IMG/VR virus record: IMGVR_UViG_646311924_000019
From: a virus
Taxonomy: Duplodnaviria > Heunggongvirae > Uroviricota > Caudoviricetes
Reading direction: 5' to 3' (one strand)
DNA: 47,189 nt
In this document: positions 1-47,189 of the stretch, piece by piece
Layout: every line of letters starts with the position of its first letter
Numbering within the stretch: position 1 is the first letter of the stretch
The notes under the pieces: generated by a model
The model's database searches: none
What the model saw: only the letters and a program-made list of their open reading frames with translations
Told to the model about the DNA's origin: nothing
Made by a program: the position numbers and the translations under genes

Positions 1-987
1 CTAATTGTGTCTGTCCACATCCCCAAATGTAAAGATATAAGGAGCACCATGATACAGTTGGATCTGATTTACATCCTGTAAATTCTCGTCGATAGCCACC
101 CCTGGAAAATCATGTTGCTGGATAAATCCGTATCCTATGTTAGTCACAGCGGAATACTCTGTGAAATCAGGACTCGCCTCATATCGGTCACTGATCGTAC
201 CCAGTCTTTCGAAGAAAGCCCTCTCATTCTTTTCATGCCTCATGGCAGCCTGTCGAAGGGCATTCAGGTTACGTAGTCTAAGATGAGCTTCTCGTTCTGG
301 CTCTGCATATCCTTTGAAGTCGGGAACACTCCATCCCAACTCTTGAGCGACACGACGTGCGAGAATCTCGGTGGGTCCTAGCTCTATATTACTATCTCCA
401 GATGGATCGCTGGCCCCAGTAACATGATGAATAATCTCGTGAATCAGTCCTTCCTGCCACGATGGCATCTCATAAGAATCAGTATCTGGCGCAACACTAA
501 AACTGACATAAGGCTCTTCGTTCTCGTTTTCTCCTGCCTCGCAAATGGGGAGAATTGGTTCTTTCCCGACATCGTATTCATATAATTCGGTACAGGTTAA
601 TGATTGAATATCATCAACTTTGACAGGGGATTCTTCGTTACGTTCGTATTCGTTTCTGTATTTAATGCTACCAATGTATACTTCCTTATTATGAATGCCA
701 TAGCTTACGGCATCACGAAAGGTCTGTGATCGACTCAAAGCATCAAGTACAGTGTTGCCAATCATATCGACCGTATGCTGATCGATGAGCCTGCTACGGC
801 TGTCATGGACGGCGCGAATGACATTTTCGTATACGTTGCTTAAATCTGCCGCGGAAAGTGGTGTTTGCTTGCCTATATCCAAAACGTAATCCGCATAGGC
901 ATTGTCCGCACGATTTGGGGCAACGGCAGCAGAGTATCCAGCAGGGGCAAAAAAGTTGAAACTAGGCTGGAGAACGGGAATTTTCAT
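1..987 (-). CDS. nleC: Type III secretion effector NleC, zinc metalloprotease
   Basis: 328-aa ORF with ATG start; HEIIHH zinc-protease motif and N-terminus MKIPVLQPSFNF recognised from memory as NleC; sits beyond the tail fibre genes at the prophage end. Confidence 0.85.
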   Translation of the reverse strand: MKIPVLQPSFNFFAPAGYSAAVAPNRADNAYADYVLDIGKQTPLSAADLSNVYENVIRAVHDSRSRLIDQHTVDMIGNTVLDALSRSQTFRDAVSYGIHNKEVYIGSIKYRNEYERNEESPVKVDDIQSLTCTELYEYDVGKEPILPICEAGENENEEPYVSFSVAPDTDSYEMPSWQEGLIHEIIHHVTGASDPSGDSNIELGPTEILARRVAQELGWSVPDFKGYAEPEREAHLRLRNLNALRQAAMRHEKNERAFFERLGTISDRYEASPDFTEYSAVTNIGYGFIQQHDFPGVAIDENLQDVNQIQLYHGAPYIFTFGDVDRHN

Positions 988-3068: not shown

Positions 3069-3668
3069 TCAGAATTTATAACCGACACCCACGATGAAAC
3101 CGTCAGTGCGCCAGTCGCCACTGCCGGAGCCTTCATAAGCAATATCAATGGCCACGGATTCGATCGGGTTAAACTGCACGCCAGCTCCCCACGCCAGAGA
3201 CGTGTTGCTGTGGCGACCGTCATCACTTCCGGTCAGCACATCGTGCGTTTTCCCCTTGTTGTCAGTTACGCGGAGATAATCCCCGGAGAAAGTCGACACA
3301 CGGCTGTAAGCCACTCCCGCCATCGCATACGCGCTGAACCATTCATTCACGCGCACAGACGGCCCCGCCATTACGCTGAACCAGCGGTTACGAACGAAAT
3401 CTTCATGCCAGCGGGTATCGCTGTAATGGGTCAGCTGGCGATTCCTGTCTCCTGCATAGCTGAACGACGTCACCATCCCCAGTGTGTCCGTAAACTCATA
3501 ACGGTATTTCACGTTAATCCCGTTCAGTTCATCGCTGCCGGGAACGTTCGTCGAGACATGAAGATACCCCGCGCTCAGCGTGGACTGATGTTCAGATGCC
3601 CATGCAGGCGCACCGGATACGGCCAGACAAATGGCTGCGGACAAAATGGCGGCATAAAGTTTACGCAT
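3069..3668 (-). CDS. lom: Outer membrane protein Lom (Ail/Lom family)
   Basis: 199-aa ORF nearly identical over its length to lambda Lom as recalled, signal peptide present. Confidence 0.9.
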   Translation of the reverse strand: MRKLYAAILSAAICLAVSGAPAWASEHQSTLSAGYLHVSTNVPGSDELNGINVKYRYEFTDTLGMVTSFSYAGDRNRQLTHYSDTRWHEDFVRNRWFSVMAGPSVRVNEWFSAYAMAGVAYSRVSTFSGDYLRVTDNKGKTHDVLTGSDDGRHSNTSLAWGAGVQFNPIESVAIDIAYEGSGSGDWRTDGFIVGVGYKF

Positions 3669-3691
3669 AATTACCTCTCGCTTTTCTGCAA

Positions 3692-30052: not shown

Positions 30053-30139
30053 CGGTAAGCGTAAACTGACCGCCGTATGTAGCCATCAGACGAGAATTGG
30101 TAACTTAGACGCCCATCTGATATAGACGGACATCTAAGT

Positions 30140-30565
30140 ATGGAATTACAGGACTGGCGAAAAGAACCTCGTAAAAACTATTCGAATGAATTCAAACTTC
30201 GTATGGTGGAACTGGCATCACAACCTGGAGCTTGTGTTGCACAGATTGCACGTGAAAATGGCGTCAATGATAATGTTATTTTCAAATGGCTCAGGCTCTG
30301 GCAGAACGAAGGGCGTGTTTCGCGGCGTCTTCCGGTAACGACCTCTTCTGACACTGGCGTTGAATTATTACCTGTAGAAATAACGCCGGATGAGCAGAAA
30401 GAACCTGTGGCGGCCATTGCGCCGTCTTTATCCACTTCCACTCAGACCAGAGTCAGTGCCAGTTCCTGCAAGGTGGAATTCCGTCACGGTAACATGACGC
30501 TGGAAAATCCATCGCCAGAGCTGCTCACGGTGTTGATCCGTGAACTGACCGGGAGGGGAAGATGA
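30140..30565 (+). CDS. IS66-family accessory protein TnpA
   Basis: 141-aa ORF, first gene of the IS66 three-gene layout. Confidence 0.85.
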   Translation: MELQDWRKEPRKNYSNEFKLRMVELASQPGACVAQIARENGVNDNVIFKWLRLWQNEGRVSRRLPVTTSSDTGVELLPVEITPDEQKEPVAAIAPSLSTSTQTRVSASSCKVEFRHGNMTLENPSPELLTVLIRELTGRGR

Positions 30566-30912
30566 TCTCACTCCCATCAGGTACCCGTATCTGGCTCGTT
30601 GCCGGCGTTACCGATATGCGTAAATCCTTCAACGGACTGGGAGAACAGGTACAACATGTGCTGAATGATAATCCCTTCTCCGGTCACCTGTTTATCTTCC
30701 GTGGCCGACGGGGTGACACCGTCAAAATTCTTTGGGCTGATGCTGATGGTCTGTGCCTGTTCACCAAACGCCTGGAGGAAGGCCAGTTTATCTGGCCTGC
30801 GGTACGTGACGGCAAGGTATCCATTACCCGCTCGCAACTGGCAATGCTCCTCGATAAGCTGGACTGGCGTCAGCCAAAAACATCCAGCCGTAACTCACTG
30901 ACAATGTTGTAA
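30562..30912 (+). CDS. IS66-family protein TnpB (Orf2)
   Basis: 116-aa ORF overlapping tnpA stop. Confidence 0.85.
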   Translation: MISLPSGTRIWLVAGVTDMRKSFNGLGEQVQHVLNDNPFSGHLFIFRGRRGDTVKILWADADGLCLFTKRLEEGQFIWPAVRDGKVSITRSQLAMLLDKLDWRQPKTSSRNSLTML

Positions 30913-30942
30913 AAAACTCCTGACCGCATTATAAAAACGGTC

Positions 30943-32556
30943 ATGAGTCAGAAATACCTCATTCGCATCGCAGAGCTGGAAAGGTTGCTCTCTGAGCAGG
31001 CTGAAGCCCTCCGTCAGAAAGACCAGCAACTGAGTCTGGTTGAAGAGACGGAAGCCTTCCTGCGCTCTGCACTGACACGTGCCGAAGAAAAGATCGAAGA
31101 AGATGAACGGGAAATAGAACATCTGCGGGCTCAGATAGAAAAACTGCGCCGGATGCTGTTCGGTACCCGTTCTGAAAAACTGCGTCGTGAAGTTGAACTG
31201 GCTGAGGCTCTGCTGAAACAACGTGAACAGGACAGCGATCGTTACAGTGGGCGGGAAGACGATCCTCAGGTTCCCCGCCAGTTGCGACAGTCGCGCCATC
31301 GTCGTCCGTTACCGGCACACCTTCCCCGTGAAATACACCGCCTGGAGCCAGAAGAAAGCTGTTGCCCGGAGTGTGGCGGTGAGCTGGATTATCTGGGAGA
31401 AGTCAGCGCTGAACAGCTGGAACTGGTGAGCAGTGCCCTGAAAGTGATCCGCACAGAACGGGTAAAAAAAGCCTGTACAAAATGTGACTGTATTGTTGAA
31501 GCACCGGCGCCGTCCCGCCCGATAGAGCGTGGTATCGCGGGCCCCGGATTACTTGCCCGCGTGTTAACGGGAAAATACTGCGAACATCTGCCACTGTATC
31601 GTCAGAGTGAAATCTTTGCCCGCCAGGGTGTCGAACTGAGCCGGGCCTTACTCTCCAACTGGGTTGACGCGTGCTGCCAGTTAATGACACCGGTGAATGA
31701 TGCCCTGTACCGTTATGTGATGAATACCCGCAAGCTTCACACTGACGACACACCGGTAAAGGTACTGGCACCGGGCCTGAAAAAGACGAAAACAGGGCGC
31801 ATCTGGACGTATGTCCGGGATGATCGCAATGCGGGTTCGTCATCTCCTCCGGCGGTCTGGTTCGCGTACTCATCGAACCGGCAGGGGAAACACCCGGAGC
31901 AACACCTCCGCCCCTTCCGGGGTATCCTGCAGGCGGATGCGTTCACAGGTTATGACAGGCTGTTCAGTGCAGAACGTGAAGGTAGTGCGCTGACAGAAGT
32001 TGCGTGCTGGGCTCATGCCCGGAGAAAAATCCACGATGTATACATCAGCAGCAAAAGTGCGACGGCAGAAGAAGCCCTGAAGCGAATCAGTGAACTGTAC
32101 GCCATCGAGGATGAAATACGGGGATTACCAGAATCAGAGCGTCTTGCAGCCAGGCAGCAGCGAAGCAAAGCGTTACTGACGTCGCTGCATGAATGGATGG
32201 TGGAGAAGAATGGCACGCTGTCGAAAAAATCCAGACTGGGCGAAGCGTTCAGCTATGTACTGAATCAGTGGGACGCCCTCTGTTATTACAGTGATGACGG
32301 TCTGGCGGAGGTGGACAATAACACAGCGGAAAGAGCGCTTCGTGCAGTCTGTCTCGGAAAGAAAAATTACGTGTTCTTCGGTAGCGATCACGGCGGCGAG
32401 CGTGGAGCACTGCTGTACGGGCTGAGCGGCACCTGCCGTCTGAACGGTATCGATCCGGAAGCGTATCTGCGCCATATTCTGAGCGTACTGCCGGAATGGC
32501 CCTCCAACCGTGTTGACGAACTCCTGCCATGGAACGTAGTACTCACCAATAAATAA
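30943..32556 (+). CDS. IS66-family transposase TnpC
   Basis: 537-aa ORF with N-terminal leucine zipper, CCPECGG zinc-finger motif and DDE region. Confidence 0.9.
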   Translation: MSQKYLIRIAELERLLSEQAEALRQKDQQLSLVEETEAFLRSALTRAEEKIEEDEREIEHLRAQIEKLRRMLFGTRSEKLRREVELAEALLKQREQDSDRYSGREDDPQVPRQLRQSRHRRPLPAHLPREIHRLEPEESCCPECGGELDYLGEVSAEQLELVSSALKVIRTERVKKACTKCDCIVEAPAPSRPIERGIAGPGLLARVLTGKYCEHLPLYRQSEIFARQGVELSRALLSNWVDACCQLMTPVNDALYRYVMNTRKLHTDDTPVKVLAPGLKKTKTGRIWTYVRDDRNAGSSSPPAVWFAYSSNRQGKHPEQHLRPFRGILQADAFTGYDRLFSAEREGSALTEVACWAHARRKIHDVYISSKSATAEEALKRISELYAIEDEIRGLPESERLAARQQRSKALLTSLHEWMVEKNGTLSKKSRLGEAFSYVLNQWDALCYYSDDGLAEVDNNTAERALRAVCLGKKNYVFFGSDHGGERGALLYGLSGTCRLNGIDPEAYLRHILSVLPEWPSNRVDELLPWNVVLTNK

Positions 32557-32761
32557 GCGTCAATACGGTGCTCCGTTGACGCTTACAAACATCGTGACGT
32601 TCCTTTGGGTGGGTGAGCCAACGCCCGGGAGCGATCTGCCCACAGAGAAAGTCACACTGACCACTCCGTAAGCTCACCCCCGAAAGGCTCTGTGGTTGAT
32701 ATGCGCCGGGCGTGGCGCAGATACAAAAAAGGCCCGCCGAAGCGAGCCTGGAAAATAAGTG

Positions 32762-32838
32762 TGGCGCGTTGTAGTGGAGTCTAACCACTGACCGATTGCT
32801 TAGAAGGCAATTGCTCTGTCCGACTGAGCTAACAACGC
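32762..32838 (-). tRNA. tRNA-Arg (anticodon UCU)
   Basis: 77-nt cloverleaf folded by hand: acceptor GCGTTGT/ACAACGC, anticodon loop CTTCTAA, 3' CCA; unusual T-loop. Confidence 0.7.
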
Positions 32839-32851
32839 ATGATGCTGATAA

Positions 32852-32928
32852 TGGACCGCCATCGGGGACTTGAACCCCGCGCAGCCAGCTTCGAAGGCTG
32901 GCGCTCTGTCCCGATGAGCTAATAGCGG
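32852..32928 (-). tRNA. tRNA-Arg (anticodon UCG)
   Basis: 77-nt cloverleaf folded by hand: anticodon loop CTTCGAA, 3' CCA; acceptor stem begins with C1-G72, which is unusual. Confidence 0.6.
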
Positions 32929-32937
32929 TATGTAATA

Positions 32938-33013
32938 TGGTGGCCCTTGCTGGATTTGAACCAGCGACCTGGCGATTATGAGTCGCTCGCTCTCACCACT
33001 GAGCTAAAGGACC
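32938..33013 (-). tRNA. tRNA with CAU anticodon, Ile2-like (ileZ-type phage tRNA)
   Basis: 76 nt, closely resembles E. coli tRNA-Ile2 as recalled; anticodon loop CTCATAA, 3' CCA. Confidence 0.75.
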
Positions 33014-37035: not shown

Positions 37036-37154
37036 TCATAGTCCTCTTTCAGAGATGAACATTCAAACAGCATTTTCAGTATGGTAAAGCGCGGGTGCGT
37101 TGAGGATGCCTGACACATCAGAGGTGGCGGGAGATTACTCCCCCGCCTGGTCTC

Positions 37155-37310
37155 TTACTTCTCAGATTCGTAGTCTACGAAGACAGCGACCTCCGTCTGA
37201 CCGGTTCGGATTCGCACCTCGCAGAGGTCTTTCCTCGTTACCAGTGCCGTCACTATGACGGTTAAACAGATGACGATCAGGGCGATTAACATCGCCTTTT
37301 GCTGCTTCAT
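37155..37310 (-). CDS. hok: Hok/Gef-family type I toxin (HokD/RelF-like)
   Basis: 51 aa MKQQKAMLIALIVICLTVIVTALVTRKDLCEVRIRTGQTEVAVF...; the track ORF 37155-37367 is an in-frame upstream extension. Confidence 0.85.
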   Translation of the reverse strand: MKQQKAMLIALIVICLTVIVTALVTRKDLCEVRIRTGQTEVAVFVDYESEK

Positions 37311-37600
37311 AGCCTGCTTCTCCTTGCCTTTCGGCACGTAAGAGGCTAACCTACATGTGTTCAGCATGGATTGAGCCTCAGATTAATGTTAAGCGTCTTG
37401 CAGGACGCGTAATGTTAACTGGGGCTTTTCTCTATCTGCCGTTGGTGTTCATGCCCGAGGCAGATAGCCTCAAGCACCCGCTGCAATTCTACTTAACTAT
37501 CCTTTTCCCGCAAACCGTTTTTATCCCCAGCGGCAAATCGAATACTCCACCAGCGCCACCGCCATCGCAATTCCTACCGTTGTGAATGCTTCAGGCCAGG

Positions 37601-41980: not shown

Positions 41981-42406
41981 TCAATGTACTGCCACAGCAT
42001 TTCCTGCCGGGCCACCACGGTTCATCTGATTGAAACCGGCGATTGCCACTGCGACAAAATCATCAGCGTCTCTCACCAGTCGCTCCCGCGTCTCCACCAG
42101 CTCCCGAAAATAAGCTGAACTGTGGCTGCGCATTCTGGCCACCAGCAAAGGTGGCATTGCCTTTTCGATCGCTGGTAACAACGCCTGAATTTTTTCAACT
42201 GCATCAGGGGTGTCTTTCTCTACCCAGCGGAAAATTTTCTGGGTATTGCGAGCCAGGGCTTCCGGATGGCTGTCGTCATACAGTTCAGGAAACGTCATAC
42301 CCAACTCAAAATAAGCCTGGGTTATTCCAGCTGCTGGAACTTTTTCGCCATCAGGACGCGCCCAGGCATTCATCGCCATGCGGATGTGTTCATGCTTGAT
42401 TTTCAT
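41981..42406 (-). CDS. YdaT-like protein (CII-position regulator/toxin family)
   Basis: 141-aa ORF beginning MKIKHEHI as in Rac YdaT (recalled); follows the Cro-like gene. Confidence 0.65.
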   Translation of the reverse strand: MKIKHEHIRMAMNAWARPDGEKVPAAGITQAYFELGMTFPELYDDSHPEALARNTQKIFRWVEKDTPDAVEKIQALLPAIEKAMPPLLVARMRSHSSAYFRELVETRERLVRDADDFVAVAIAGFNQMNRGGPAGNAVAVH

Positions 42407-42671
42407 GAATCAAGCTCCTAGTAAGTGGTTGTGTTAACGTTTTGGTATCTTCCAGCTCGGGCCAAATATTCATCCAATCAAAAGGCCTTAGTTGCTGACG
42501 TGTAACTTCACCATTACTGGCTCGCTCAATAAGGACACATAACGATGCCCCTAACATTTGACCTTTACTCAATGCCTTTCTTAGATAACCGATGCTAGTA
42601 CCACACTCACATGCAAACATACGCTGTTCATCTGACGAAAGAGAATTGAGAAATATTCTTAATTCTTCCAT
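42390..42671 (-). CDS. Cro-like repressor (YdaS/DicC-like HTH)
   Basis: 93-aa ORF with AAGGAG Shine-Dalgarno, divergent from the repressor gene. Confidence 0.7.
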   Translation of the reverse strand: MEELRIFLNSLSSDEQRMFACECGTSIGYLRKALSKGQMLGASLCVLIERASNGEVTRQQLRPFDWMNIWPELEDTKTLTQPLTRSLIHENQA

Positions 42672-42770
42672 AGCTACTCCTTAGTAAACACAGCAAGAAT
42701 ACCCACAGGTAAACAAAAGTCAATACCCTTGGGTTGTTTACCTTGCGGTAATCGCATCTATTATTTACCT
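42672..42770. promoter_or_regulatory. Divergent promoter/operator region of the immunity switch
   Basis: Four TGTTTAC half-sites including a perfect 10-bp inverted repeat aggtaaacaa/ttgtttacct. Confidence 0.5.
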
Positions 42771-43190
42771 ATGGACAAATATGAATTTAGACGACAACAA
42801 CTCATCAAAATTCGTGATGAGAAATGCGATGGTAAAGCGGTTAACGTGGCCAGAAAGATCGGTCGCGAGCCTTCTTATGTATCAAGAATGTTGTACCCAG
42901 AGGGGAAAAAAGGAAAAAAACGGATCGCTGATGATATGGTGGAGATTATAGAAGAGTCCTTTGGGTTACCCCGGGGATGGATGGATGGTATCGTTTCATC
43001 ATCAACGAACACAGCCTCCAATTATGAAACAAGGGTTCTAACGCCACGACAACGTATTTTTTTAGATCTCTTAGACGAACTGCCAGAAAGTGAAGCGGAT
43101 AACTTATTAAAAACTCTTGAAGAGAAAAAACAGTATTACAATATGATCTACGAAGAAATCCGTAAAAAGAAAGCACAAAACGCATCATAA
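42771..43190 (+). CDS. Prophage repressor (DicA/RacR-like HTH), probably leaderless
   Basis: 139 aa from ATG 42771 (track ORF starts at an upstream TTG); HTH AVNVARKIGREPSYVSRML; no Shine-Dalgarno before the ATG. Confidence 0.7.
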   Translation: MDKYEFRRQQLIKIRDEKCDGKAVNVARKIGREPSYVSRMLYPEGKKGKKRIADDMVEIIEESFGLPRGWMDGIVSSSTNTASNYETRVLTPRQRIFLDLLDELPESEADNLLKTLEEKKQYYNMIYEEIRKKKAQNAS

Positions 43191-43229
43191 CTCACCAAAC
43201 AACCAGTCACCAGTTAAGACACATCAAAA

Positions 43230-43272
43230 AATTACCCATGGGTATTTACTTTTTAAATACCCATGGGTATCC
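43230..43272. promoter_or_regulatory. Two copies of the 12-bp palindrome TACCCATGGGTA (candidate operator of the leftward operon)
   Basis: Perfect palindromes at about 43233-43244 and 43258-43269, upstream of the ydaF-like gene. Confidence 0.4.
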
Positions 43273-43455
43273 TTCCTTTCATACCAACCCACCCCGTCCC
43301 ACAGAACGCAGGGCAATACTTCGAGTTACCAGGCAGTGGTCAGGGGGTAAGTAGCCAGCCCGAGGCGTAAGAACATGACGGCAGGGTTCAACTTTAATAA
43401 CTATGCAGCAGGTTTTTGTTCCGCTACCCCGGCGTTAAGGGGAAATGAGGTCAGC

Positions 43456-43608
43456 ATGGATACTATCGATCTTGGCAACAGCGAATCTCTGGTATGCGGC
43501 GTGTTTCCCAACCAGGACGGTACGTTTACCGCGATGACGTATACCAAAAGTAAAACGTTTAAAACCGAAGCTGGCGCGCATCGCTGGTTAGCAAGAAACT
43601 CCGACTGA
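43456..43608 (+). CDS. YdaF-like small protein
   Basis: 51 aa MDTIDLGNSESLVCGVFPNQDGTFTAMTYTKSKTFKTE... with GAGG Shine-Dalgarno; track ORF is an upstream extension. Confidence 0.7.
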   Translation: MDTIDLGNSESLVCGVFPNQDGTFTAMTYTKSKTFKTEAGAHRWLARNSD

Positions 43609-44258
43609 TGAGGTTGACGATGGAATTTAAAGATTTACCTCCTTCAATCCAGGAGATTGCAGCACACACACTTCGTCATCGTCTGAACGAACTTGAATTG
43701 GAATCGGTAACGAAAAAAGACACTGATAATATGGCTCGTAATGTGCGCGATGCGTTTACCGGATTGTATTTCTGTGCGTCTATAAATAAACACGACTCAG
43801 AGAGTGTGGCAAATAAAATTGCAGAAACGACAGCGCAAAACATCAATACGAAACCAACGGAAGAAGAAATTGATCAGTTTGCTCATGATGCTGGTTTAAA
43901 AAACAAGAAAGAAAAATCGCCATATGCGGGGAACATGTTTGTTTATGACAATCTCATCAGAATTCGTGGCGAAATTCCGGCGGAATACCTGGCAAGAGTC
44001 CATCAGGCATTGCTTAAAAATTTGGAAACAGAATTATTTGATGGCAACACTAACGGTTTCTTCATGGTATCAGGCCTTGATAAAGACTGGGATGCAGAAA
44101 AACGCTGGAATGTTGCTACATGGTTATTCAGTAACAGAGCCGCTGCACTGGAAGCTTCGGCATGTATTTGCGGCCTGTTCTTAACAGACCACAAATATAA
44201 TCTGGATGTGTACAGTTATATTTACGCTGAACACGGTCCACTCTGGATTGACTGGTAA
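43608..44258 (+). CDS. Hypothetical protein (216 aa), no family recognised
   Basis: ATG overlapping the ydaF-like stop (TGATG); alternative start at the fifth codon with GAGG Shine-Dalgarno. Confidence 0.6.
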   Translation: MRLTMEFKDLPPSIQEIAAHTLRHRLNELELESVTKKDTDNMARNVRDAFTGLYFCASINKHDSESVANKIAETTAQNINTKPTEEEIDQFAHDAGLKNKKEKSPYAGNMFVYDNLIRIRGEIPAEYLARVHQALLKNLETELFDGNTNGFFMVSGLDKDWDAEKRWNVATWLFSNRAAALEASACICGLFLTDHKYNLDVYSYIYAEHGPLWIDW

Positions 44259-44468
44259 TTATAAGGAAACACCAGCAGGGCCGCGGCGACCAACAGAACG
44301 ATTAAAATCAATAATGCCATTATAAAGGACATTATTTAATTTATCGTCGAATGCTGATTCTGTGAGCCTCAACTCTGAATGAATTTTTAATAACCCTGAT
44401 TGCCTGAGTTGATTTACCAGGCATTCAATCTGTTTTTCAATAAGCGGATTTCTTTTTTTGTTTGGCAT
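44259..44468 (-). CDS. Hypothetical small protein, convergent with the 216-aa gene
   Basis: 69 aa from the ATG with GGAGGA Shine-Dalgarno (track ORF starts 12 nt upstream). Confidence 0.35.
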   Translation of the reverse strand: MPNKKRNPLIEKQIECLVNQLRQSGLLKIHSELRLTESAFDDKLNNVLYNGIIDFNRSVGRRGPAGVSL

Positions 44469-44805
44469 TTTATCCTCCATTGAGGTTCTGGGTTAAAAAT
44501 GGAGACCAACACGCTGTCACGTGTGGTCGTGCGCCGGACACGGATAAGAATCCGGTACTGACAGTTTACTGAAAGGATATTTCCCTGAAAAGTCAGGGCA
44601 TAACGCGAAAGCGTACGGCGAAGCTCTTTCCCTTAGAAGGCTTGTCGTTAGATTTCTTCGAACGTGCGCTTCCGGTTGTGGCACTCCGCGAAATGGCGCG
44701 GCGGTAAGTATGGCGGGGTTATTCCTTCCCCGTTGAGGACACCGGGTTGTCAGGTTGACCATACGCTTAAGTGACAACCCCGCTGCAACGCCCTCTGTTA
44801 TCAAT

Positions 44806-44863
44806 TTTCTGGTGACGTTTGGCGGTATCAGTTTTACTCCGTGGCTGCTCTGCCGCCCTTTTT
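44806..44863 (+). ncRNA. dicF: DicF small RNA
   Basis: tttctggtgacgtttggcggtatcagttttactccgtggctgctctgccgcccttttt matches the DicF sRNA as recalled (one mismatch), including its terminator. Confidence 0.8.
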
Positions 44864-45038
44864 AAAGTGAATTTTGTGATGCGGTGAATGCGGCTAAGCG
44901 CACGCGGAACAGTTAAAACAAGCGGTCTTTTACGGGCGTAACGGGAATGCTCTGTATCCGGCGTTAATTGTTAACTGGTTAACGTCACCTGGAGGCACCA
45001 GGCACTGCATCACAAAATTCATTGTTGAGGACGCGATA

Positions 45039-45227
45039 ATGGAAACGTTATTACCAAACGTTAATACGTCTGAAGGTTGTTTTGAAATTGGTGTCACTAT
45101 CAGTAACCCTGTATTTACTGAAGATGCCATTAACAAGAGAAAACACGAACGGGAGCTATTAAATAAAATATGCATTCTTTCAATGCTGGCCCGTTTACGT
45201 CCGATACAAAAAGGATGCTGGCAATGA
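45039..45227 (+). CDS. dicB: Cell division inhibitor DicB
   Basis: 62-aa ORF METLLPNVNTSEGCFEIGVTISNPVFTEDAINKRK... matching DicB as recalled; GAGGA Shine-Dalgarno. Confidence 0.85.
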   Translation: METLLPNVNTSEGCFEIGVTISNPVFTEDAINKRKHERELLNKICILSMLARLRPIQKGCWQ

Positions 45228-45415
45228 ATACAGCATTTGCACTTGTTCTGACAGTTTTTCTTGTTTCCGGAGAGCCAGTTGATATTGCAGTCAGTGTTCA
45301 CAGGACAATGCAGGAGTGTGTAACTGCAGCAACCGAACAGAAAATTCCCGGTAACTGTTACCCGGTCGATAAAGTTATTCACCAGGATAATAACGAAATC
45401 CCGGCAGGTCTTTAA
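45224..45415 (+). CDS. ydfD: YdfD lysis protein
   Basis: 63 aa MNTAFALVLTVFLVSGEPVD...; ATG overlaps the dicB stop (ATGA). Confidence 0.8.
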   Translation: MNTAFALVLTVFLVSGEPVDIAVSVHRTMQECVTAATEQKIPGNCYPVDKVIHQDNNEIPAGL

Positions 45416-45507
45416 AACAGTTCCGTAATAAACATCCGATTTCATTCTTATATGCCAGCAATGGCAGGGATTTGTTCACCCTTAAATCTGTAATGAGGTA
45501 AAACAAA

Positions 45508-45936
45508 ATGAGTAAAGTCTTTATTTGCGCCGCCATTCCGGACGAACAGGCAATAAAGGAAGAAGGTGCAGTCGCTGTAGCCACTGCCATTGAAGCCGGT
45601 GATGAATGTCGCGCCCGCGCAAAATTTCACTGGCAATTCCTGGAACATTATCCGGCTGCTCAGGACTGCGCTTATAAATTTATTGTCTGCGAGGATAAAC
45701 CTGGCATACCCCGCCCTGCCCTCGATTCATGGGATGCTGAATATATGCAGGAAAACCGCTGGGATGAGGAGTCTGCTTCTTTTGTCCCGGTTGAGACTGA
45801 ATCCTATCCGATGAACGTCACTTTTGACAAGCTGGCCCCTGAAGTACAGAACGCTGTCATGGTTAAGTTCGACACATGTGAAAACATCACCGTTGATATG
45901 GTTATTAGCGCACAGGAATTGTTGCAGGAAGACTGA
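45508..45936 (+). CDS. YdfE-like protein, probably truncated by the IS insertion
   Basis: 142-aa ORF with GAGG Shine-Dalgarno; its stop codon TGA is the first three bases of the IS terminal repeat. Confidence 0.6.
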   Translation: MSKVFICAAIPDEQAIKEEGAVAVATAIEAGDECRARAKFHWQFLEHYPAAQDCAYKFIVCEDKPGIPRPALDSWDAEYMQENRWDEESASFVPVETESYPMNVTFDKLAPEVQNAVMVKFDTCENITVDMVISAQELLQED

Positions 45937-45975
45937 ACCGCCCCGGGTTTCCTGGAGAGTGTTTTATCTGTGAAC

Positions 45976-46866
45976 TCAGGCTGCCAGATCATCGTTTCCG
46001 ATGGAAGCATAATAAGCTTTTTCTGCTTCTGCCGGAGGAGTATGGCCCAGCCTTCCCAGCAATCGTCGATTGTTATACCAGTCCACCCACGTTAGTGTGG
46101 CCAGTTCCACTTCTGCACGGTTTTTCCAGCTCTTACGGTGTATTACCTCCGCTTTGTAAAGACCATTGATGCTCTCAGCCATCGCGTTGTCATACGAGTC
46201 GCCTGTACTCCCTGTTGATGCCAGTAATCCGGCTTCTTTTAGTCGCTCCGTATAGGCCAGTGACACATACTGAGAGCCTTTATCGCTGTGATGGATGGTG
46301 CCAGACGGACGACGGGCCCACAACGCCTGCTCCAGCGCATCCAGCACGAATGTCGTTTCCATAGACGATGAGACCCGCCACCCCACGATGTATCCGGCAA
46401 ACACATCAATGATAAACGCCACATAGACGAAGCCCTGCCATGTGCTGACGTAAGTAAAATCAGCCACCCACAGCTGGTCAGGTCGTTCTGCCACGAACTG
46501 ACGGTTTACGCGGTCGCCTGCGGCAACGGCTTTCCGGCTGATGGTCGTACGGACCTTTTTACCCCGGAGAACACCGGCAAGTCCCATAACCGCCATGAGA
46601 CGTGCCACTGTACATCTGGCCACCCTGATTCCTTCCCGTAACAACTGACGCCAGACTTTACGCACACCGTACACCTGATGATTTTCATCGTATACGCGCT
46701 GTATCTCTCTCTTCAGCCAGTCGTCGTGCTGCGCACGGGCACTGCGTTTATCCGGATGATGTCGCTGTTGCTGACAATGGTAATACGTTGACGGGGCAAT
46801 ATGCAGTTCGCTGCATACCGGTCCGACCCCGTACTGCTCACGCAGCTTATCCAGCAGTGGCATCAT
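45976..46866 (-). CDS. IS3-family transposase OrfB (DDE catalytic domain)
   Basis: 296-aa ORF in the -1 frame relative to orfA. Confidence 0.85.
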
Positions 46867-47189
46867 TTTTTCCAGAGGCGGTCGAACTCCGCCTTCGCAA
46901 AATAAGCGGAAGCCTGGCGAAGGATATCGTTACTGCGGCGCAGTTCACGATTTTCACGTTCCAGCTCTTTCAGACGCTGACGTTCAGCGCTGGTGAGCCC
47001 ACCATCACCGCCCCCGGTATCCCGCTCATGCTGGCGAACCCAGACACGCAGAGTCTCCGGCGTACAGCCAATCTTTGGGGCAATGGAACAAATTGCCGCC
47101 CACTGTGAGTCATATTCATCCTGACTTTCCAGAACCATACGAATCGCCCGCTGACGGACTTCGGGGGAAAAACGAGTATTTTTAGTCAT
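46863..47189 (-). CDS. IS3-family transposase OrfA (HTH, leucine zipper)
   Basis: 108-aa [18 protein letters not shown]...; A6 run at the orfA/orfB overlap suggests a -1 frameshift to make OrfAB. Confidence 0.85.

Follow-up and report, generated by a model that had tools for sequence, protein, structure and literature searches.

The viral record IMGVR_UViG_646311924_000019 comprises 47,189 nt of a lambdoid prophage, and this whole stretch is referred to as the window. At its right-hand end, on the plus strand, the window carries an early-left operon with the genes for the small RNA (sRNA) DicF, the cell division inhibitor DicB and the lysis protein YdfD. Its sequence identifies it very probably as a standard, apparently functional dicBF-type early-left (PL-like) operon. 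The DicF-dicB-ydfD module is an already known, textbook element in most Escherichia coli genomes. Positions 44528-45507 were collinear with positions 1649102-1650077 of the Qin prophage of E. coli K-12, with 87-98% identity. By sequence comparison, the window copy differs from Qin only in its mosaic flanks, which are the immunity region, the slot of ydfB and ydfC and the downstream IS1203. All feature coordinates are collected in Table 1.

DicF, DicB, YdfD and the untranslated leader

DicF was identified by Rfam family RF00039, which matched positions 44807-44858 of the plus strand with 75.0 bits (E 7.5e-15) over model positions 1-52 of 52. The gathering score of this family is 48 bits. Alignment to K-12 Qin placed DicF opposite K-12 positions 1649382-1649434 and revealed a single substitution, A39G at position 44844, with nucleotides 1-38 and 40-53 being identical. 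In the consensus fold, A39G turns a U-A stem pair into U-G. The self-fold energy was -15.4 kcal/mol with A39G and -15.9 kcal/mol with the K-12 nucleotide, a shift of 0.5 kcal/mol. Nucleotide 39 is unpaired in the predicted duplex of DicF with ftsZ, for which both variants gave -38.5 kcal/mol. The substitution was found in 11 of 131 DicF loci. A39G was considered as a disabling change and rejected, as no effect on the stem or on ftsZ pairing was predicted. The target-pairing regions, comprising the 5' region for xylR and pykA and the 3' region for ftsZ, are intact by prediction. The terminator expected for RF00039 was present as a hairpin at 44821-44857 followed by U5 at 44859-44863. The consensus fold of 36 distinct leaders also has a small predicted hairpin (44796-44803 / 44810-44817), with the mature 5' end of DicF in its loop.

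Both protein genes were recognised over their profiles with high scores. DicB matched Pfam PF05358 with 127.4 bits (cut-off 27) and the NCBIfam model NF049927, CellDivInhibDicB, with 132.7 bits (cut-off 100) over residues 1-62. The RefSeq protein at this position, WP_000449192.1, is named DicB. YdfD, a DUF1482 protein, reached 88 bits with Pfam PF07358 (cut-off 25). Identity to the K-12 proteins was 89% for DicB and 94% for YdfD, the latter with four substitutions. The YdfD allele was the commonest one, occurring in 17 of 111 loci. Ribosome-binding sites precede both start codons. The Shine-Dalgarno sequence GAGGA of dicB (45027-45031) lies 7 nt ahead of its ATG, and AAGGA (45211-45215) lies 8 nt ahead of the ATG of ydfD, which overlaps the TGA of dicB in the sequence ATGA at 45224-45227. 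In K-12, DicB inhibits division in a MinC/ZipA-dependent manner and inhibits ManYZ (PMC6832061), and YdfD causes lysis via inhibition of IspG (PMC8835842). The initial annotation had described DicF, dicB and ydfD as intact, with intact starts and ribosome-binding sites, and had proposed alignment to K-12 Qin as a check. The family scores and this alignment bear it out, with no sign in the sequence of a disabling change in DicF, DicB or YdfD.

Non-coding sequence of about 300 nt before DicF had also been described, and positions 44469-44805 indeed carry no annotated gene in RefSeq. From this stretch it had been concluded that the DicF precursor differs from that of K-12, the window having a novel leader of about 300 nt in place of ydfABC. 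K-12 itself has such a leader. There, 340 non-coding nucleotides separate the end of ydfC (1649041) from the start of dicF (1649382), and dicF has been described as part of a long untranslated stretch that follows ydfABC (PMC5069750). The window leader aligned to its K-12 counterpart with 90% identity and without large gaps, and the 131 nt adjoining DicF (44675-44805) were 98.5% identical. Conservation was also high among 129 other DicF-bearing loci, which were taken from species-representative genomes and IMG/VR contigs. In 128 of them, the 136 nt preceding DicF were present, with a median identity of 97.8%. In favour of a novel leader, the approximately 60 nt at 44469-44527 failed to align with K-12 (44% identity), and neither YdfB nor YdfC gave a tblastn match anywhere in the window. 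A homologue of ydfA is present in the window. Because the leader is homologous to that of K-12 and ydfA is present, the part of the precursor on which RNase III and RNase E act is the same. A novel leader was rejected, since the stretch aligns as the known K-12 untranslated leader, and this explanation is very improbable.

A coding function of the 326 nt before DicF was also considered, as one long open reading frame (ORF) exists in the leader. It comprises 95 codons on the minus strand (44517-44804). This ORF begins with TTG, matched no Pfam family, is unannotated in RefSeq for E. coli 2015C-3101 and for K-12, and is interrupted by indels of 1, 2 and 4 nt in homologous loci. That it encodes a protein is extremely unlikely. 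A permissive Rfam scan of positions 43000-46000 returned only DicF and a sub-threshold match to STnc100. A promoter scan found no plus-strand sigma-70-like site at 44469-44805. A separate DicF promoter inside the leader was rejected, since no site was predicted and no internal promoter for DicF was found in K-12 either (PMC10448788).

In K-12, RNase III generates the 5' end of a DicF precursor of 190 nt and RNase E generates the mature 5' end (PMC10448788). As the leader next to DicF is 98.5% identical to K-12, the same processing route is inferred for the window. RNAalifold predicted a leader hairpin, L1, with a 14-bp stem and a variable apex. The stem was kept across the distinct leaders, mostly via G-U transitions. 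Counted back from 44858 by the K-12 length of 190 nt, the 5' end of the precursor would fall at about 44669, within the 3' arm of L1. This hairpin is the putative RNase III substrate.

The dicF-dicB spacer and its likeness to STnc100

The spacer between DicF and dicB was predicted to adopt a multi-branch fold with a minimum free energy of -68.8 kcal/mol (z = -5.2 vs shuffled sequence). In the RNAalifold consensus of 29 distinct spacers, it was closed by 21 contiguous base pairs (44866-44886 / 45003-45023). This duplex was preserved by G-U transitions and a few compensatory changes, and 4 of 44 pairs had double changes. In K-12, the 3' end of DicF is reported to arise at the intrinsic terminator, giving 53 nt, or by an RNase III cut, giving 72 nt (PMC5069750). 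By arithmetic from the K-12 length, the 72-nt end maps to 44877, halfway along the 5' arm of the duplex. The two published RNase III-type ends, those of the 190-nt and the 72-nt RNA, therefore fall inside arms of the leader hairpin and of the spacer duplex. The 21-bp duplex would be the RNase III site giving the 3' end of 72-nt DicF and a 5' end of the dicB mRNA near 45012. In a thermodynamic calculation, the mean unpaired probability of the dicB Shine-Dalgarno sequence rose from 0.2 in the unprocessed RNA to 0.75 after a cut of the closing duplex.

The spacer is also probably a distant relative of the sRNA STnc100, as judged from sequence and covariance models. With the Rfam model of STnc100 (RF02076), it scored 34.7 bits. 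In all five further loci tested, one of them K-12 Qin, the corresponding place scored 30.9 to 40.5 bits. Since the gathering score of 47 bits was not reached, the spacer was not filed as a member of this family. The late region of this prophage also contains a genuine STnc100 copy. A covariance model, R1, was built only from dicF-dicB spacers and matched this copy at 29298-29439 on the minus strand with 56.7 bits. A second STnc100 copy, in locus L070, was matched with 52.8 bits. Over about 600 kb of loci, R1 otherwise matched only spacers and their antisense strands, the latter with 25-39 bits. In both the spacer and STnc100, a closing stem is followed by GGUGAAU, a first hairpin carrying compensatory changes and a UCACCnGGAGGCACCnGGCAC hairpin that is almost the same in the two, so that the order of elements is shared. 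The covariance-model matches were reciprocal, and the shared features comprise the architecture and several sequence blocks. The two RNAs differ in their location. STnc100 lies upstream of the nanS-p esterase gene, and the spacer lies instead inside an operon, with an sRNA on one side and a coding gene on the other. A 2026 preprint ties STnc100 to PasD and does not mention DicF.

The resemblance could also have arisen by chance or convergence of two stable multi-branch RNAs instead of common descent. The sub-threshold RF02076 scores of the window copy and the five further loci agree with this, and the R1 scores of the reverse-complemented spacers indicate that part of the score reflects generic symmetry. 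Such an origin is rather unlikely in view of the R1 matches, which, in the loci searched, covered the two genuine STnc100 copies and nothing else in 600 kb beyond spacers and their antisense, and in view of the common order of elements including the UCACCnGGAGGCACCnGGCAC hairpin. Descent from a common ancestor with STnc100 is preferred. On the basis of the folding and processing models, it is tentatively suggested that the spacer is a diverged STnc100/PasD paralogue that serves in cis as a processing element for RNase III, the cut releasing 72-nt DicF and freeing the dicB Shine-Dalgarno sequence. The homology of spacer and STnc100 alone is rated above this whole proposal, which is a doubtful one. 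If it is true, STnc100-type RNAs would be reusable processing or insulator modules at two positions of lambdoid prophages and not only trans-acting sRNAs. If the link to STnc100 holds, an sRNA family of unclear role would gain a concrete function in cis RNase III processing and translational gating. The relationship of the spacer to STnc100, with its possible role in RNase III processing and dicB translation, is the only thread worth following here.

Operon control, flanking genes and prophage setting

The immunity region comprises a CI/DicA-type repressor of 139 aa and, divergent from it, a Cro-like regulator. The repressor resembled DicA in its C-terminal 46 aa only (33% identity, E 1e-7) and reached 24 bits with the NCBIfam DicA model, which has a cut-off of 101. 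By sequence comparison, it is heteroimmune to Qin. The Cro-like regulator showed a weak match to Pfam YdaS_toxin. It is not a homologue of DicC, as K-12 DicC had no significant tblastn match in the window. The interval from the repressor gene to ydfA contains two perfect 12-bp palindromes, TACCCATGGGTA, spaced 25 bp centre to centre. Further TACCCATGGGTA-like sites with up to two mismatches were found in the 47-kb window only at 42700-42711 and 42724-42735, between the cro-like and repressor genes, and a site with three mismatches was located at 42766-42777. Operator-like palindromes were thus confined to the two intergenic regions flanking the repressor gene. The TACCCATGGGTA sites are candidate OL-type operators of this prophage, and the operon would be under the control of its own repressor. 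A candidate promoter was read by eye overlapping the palindromes, with the -35 element TTTACT at 43245-43250, a distance of 17 nt and the -10 element TATCCT at 43268-43273. The promoter region did not align with K-12 dicBp. The TACCCATGGGTA pair was also scored by the promoter and terminator scanner as a bidirectional terminator-like hairpin.

As in K-12, the operon starts with ydfA. K-12 YdfA matched the window in tblastn with 89.8% identity, and RefSeq labels the gene as a DUF1391 family protein. In the slot of ydfB and ydfC, the window has an ORF of 212 aa, which matched no Pfam or NCBIfam family, and a convergent ORF of 69 aa, which corresponds to WP_001133034.1 in RefSeq and has a promoter-like site at 44496-44467 in the promoter scan. 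Complete E. coli genomes carrying the cassette of both ORFs at a coverage of 80% or higher numbered 565, among them O157:H7, O121 and O111 genomes. The arrangement is thus a common one. No plus-strand intrinsic terminator was predicted between 43270 and DicF.

The operon would work as follows. The prophage repressor would bind the TACCCATGGGTA operators and keep the operon off. By homology to K-12, when repression is lifted, one transcript would be made through ydfA, the 212-aa ORF, the leader, DicF, the spacer, dicB and ydfD. Following the K-12 route, RNase III would cut the leader hairpin to yield the 190-nt pre-DicF, and RNase E would then produce the 5' end of mature DicF at 44806. The 3' end would be set by the intrinsic terminator at 44858 or by RNase III in the 21-bp duplex near 44877. 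With Hfq, DicF would pair with the mRNAs of ftsZ, xylR, pykA and manX, and with that of pchA in enterohaemorrhagic E. coli (EHEC). DicB would block assembly of the Z-ring via MinC/ZipA and inhibit ManYZ-dependent phage entry, and YdfD would inhibit IspG and lead to lysis.

Downstream of ydfD, a terminator-like hairpin TGCCAGCAATGGCA is followed by GGGATTTGTT. Its bases were identical in K-12, and it would act as a terminator. In K-12, no transcript beyond ydfABC-dicFB-ydfD was detected (PMC10448788). The following ydfE-like exonuclease gene retains its N-terminal 142 codons, with 96.5% identity to residues 1-142 of K-12 YdfE. It is interrupted by an insertion sequence (IS), IS1203/IS629 of the IS3 family, which extends beyond the end of the window. 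RefSeq lists the exonuclease as a pseudogene without C-terminus, its remainder resuming past the IS, and labels the latter as an IS3-like element IS1203 family transposase with programmed frameshift. The Rfam ALIL frameshift pseudoknot was found in the IS at 46792-46908 with 121.5 bits. The TGA stop of the interrupted exonuclease ORF comes from the terminal bases of the IS.

Several observations weigh against a functional dicBF-type operon. The candidate promoter is weak, matching 8 of 12 consensus positions, and was below the threshold of the scanner, which did not report it. Inside the operon, a gene of 69 aa with a promoter-like site of its own is oriented convergently and could impede read-through. 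The leaders and the spacers are each too similar in sequence for strong covariation support, and their folds are predictions. The processing positions were carried over from K-12 by arithmetic. Finally, DicB has 7 substitutions in 62 residues compared with the tested K-12 protein, four of them among the last eight residues. The identical DicB allele occurred in 19 of 111 other DicF loci and was the second commonest, so the C-terminal changes are not private decay. A degenerate C-terminus of DicB was rejected for this reason.

The operon might instead be a silent relic, intact in sequence, unexpressed because of tight repression, convergent transcription or lack of a working promoter, and kept by hitch-hiking. 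The prophage is defective, with frameshifts in the J gene, one tail-fibre gene and one further ORF, the IS-split exonuclease and a truncated integrase. In addition, no strong promoter was predicted, and the products are toxic. However, the DicB and YdfD alleles were identical in many independent loci, and leader, DicF and spacer were nearly invariant across 4720 genomes, a pattern that neutral decay would not give. In K-12, DicF is expressed in stationary phase from a prophage that is just as defective, and the operon of that prophage is spontaneously on in a subpopulation (PMC10448788). A silent relic is unlikely, and a functional dicBF-type operon is preferred.

The window matched NZ_CP027221.1 (3070979-3118167) of E. 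coli 2015C-3101, a human stool isolate, with 99.93% identity. Over the 47,189 nt, 29 positions were mismatched and 4 gaps were opened, one of the differences being a 1-nt indel between 43190 and 43456, which indicates that the window originates from a very close relative or from a different assembly. The host is a Shiga toxin-producing E. coli (STEC) strain. The prophage adjoins tRNA-Ser and mtfA. Its minus strand carries the late genes, phage tRNA genes, hok/sok and nleC. The genes for the effector NleC and the phage tRNAs, the element ISEc47 and hok/sok are all ordinary in STEC lambdoid prophages. Beyond annotation, the operon matters little. A record of DicF under a non-Qin repressor is useful when functional copies of dicF, dicB and ydfD are counted in STEC. 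DicF has been linked to the regulation of the locus of enterocyte effacement (LEE) and of Stx2 in STEC.

Table 1. Features of the window, listed by position
Feature	Position	Strand	Basis or remark
nleC effector gene	1-987	-	left end of prophage
Genuine STnc100 copy	29280-29452	-	Rfam; late region
IS66-family element (ISEc47)	30139-32555		late region
Three phage tRNA genes (Arg, Arg, Ile)	32761-33012	-	
hok/sok locus	37154-37479	-	
Cro-like regulator	42390-42671	-	PHROG 35 'transcriptional repressor', 84 bits; divergent from repressor gene
CI/DicA-type repressor, 139 aa	42771-43190	+	PHROG 5736 'transcriptional regulator', 235 bits
Two palindromes TACCCATGGGTA, candidate operators	43233-43269		between repressor gene and ydfA
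ydfA homologue, 50 aa	43456-43608	+	Pfam DUF1391, 96.6 bits
212-aa ORF	43620-44258	+	PHROG 2151, 489 bits, function unknown
69-aa ORF	44259-44468	-	PHROG 4274, 172 bits, function unknown; convergent with operon
Pre-DicF untranslated leader	44528-44805	+	homologous to K-12 1649102-1649381
Predicted leader hairpin L1	44606-44674 (44606-44621 / 44658-44674)	+	RNAalifold consensus, 36 distinct leaders
DicF sRNA, 53 nt	44806-44858	+	Rfam RF00039 and K-12 alignment
dicF-dicB spacer, 166 nt	44859-45024	+	minimum free energy fold and RNAalifold
dicB, 62 aa	45039-45227	+	Pfam PF05358, NCBIfam NF049927
ydfD, 63 aa	45224-45415	+	Pfam PF07358
Terminator-like hairpin	45453-45476	+	identical bases in K-12; putative role
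ydfE-like exonuclease gene, N-terminal part	45508-45933	+	PHROG 2082 'exonuclease'
IS1203/IS629 (IS3 family)	45934-47189	-	inserted in exonuclease gene; extends beyond window end

Distribution and comparison with known systems

The unit of pre-DicF and spacer was present in 4720 of 5426 complete E. coli genomes (about 87%), with a median of 2 and a maximum of 10 copies. Some isolated phages carry it as well, among them Tritos, in which DicF is annotated. In the RefSeq feature table for the window locus, the interval between the 69-aa ORF and dicB contains no RNA gene, and in closely related genomes no annotated feature lies under the match to pre-DicF and spacer. DicF appears to be unannotated in these records. 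In a few loci (L035, L037, L131 and L009; also L103 and L057), DicF and spacer were followed by other sequence and not by dicB. Some dicB-less loci had an unrelated ORF of 72-77 aa, counted from the first ATG and beginning with MEIIMIAHH[FY]GTD. A Pfam search of the alternative genes after DicF and spacer in these few loci gave no family. In L057, genes for isrK and the C4 antisense RNA followed. As DicF and spacer sometimes occur without dicB, they form a mosaic unit independent of dicB. A DicF-like RNA gene was observed in locus L006 of Salmonella enterica (CP191473.1, about 3662-3684 on the minus strand). Hairpin and terminator were kept, and the 5' region reads GTGAGAGTTGGG instead of TTTCTGGTGACG. 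It had no homology to the spacer and was followed by an ORF of 68 aa beginning with MIDHHYGTD. By its sequence, this RNA may be a seed-swapped relative of DicF.

K-12 Qin and the window share the order of ydfA, followed further on by the untranslated leader, DicF, the structured spacer, dicB, ydfD and a ydfE-like exonuclease. Both also have dicB and ydfD coupled by ATGA. An IS also disrupts ydfE in Qin, with IS2 there and IS1203 in the window at different positions. The internal hairpin of the spacer differs at about 44920-44950 of the window. Qin has ydfB and ydfC, whereas the window has the 212-aa ORF and the convergent 69-aa ORF instead. The dicA, dicC and dicBp of Qin have no homology to the repressor, Cro-like gene, operators and promoter region of the window. 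[quoted passage not shown]

The second comparison concerns the dicF copies of EHEC and STEC strains, such as O157:H7 Sakai, EDL933 and 86-24. EHEC strains have been reported with four dicF copies (PMC7873438; PMC5069750 Fig. 9), and seven places matching the DicF locus were found in the 2015C-3101 record. An STEC host and several DicF-bearing prophages per genome are common to both. Nothing qualitative sets the window copy apart, which is one such copy in an O111-like background.

The third comparison is with the PL operon of phage lambda and its division inhibitor gene kil. The kil gene has no sequence homology to the window, and the N gene and nutL were not recognised there. Unlike in lambda, the division block in the window would act via an sRNA and DicB. 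In both, small host-toxic early-left genes lie on the same strand as the repressor gene and are followed by recombination or exonuclease and integrase genes, and the operators of lambda PL overlap the promoter as do the candidate operators of the window.

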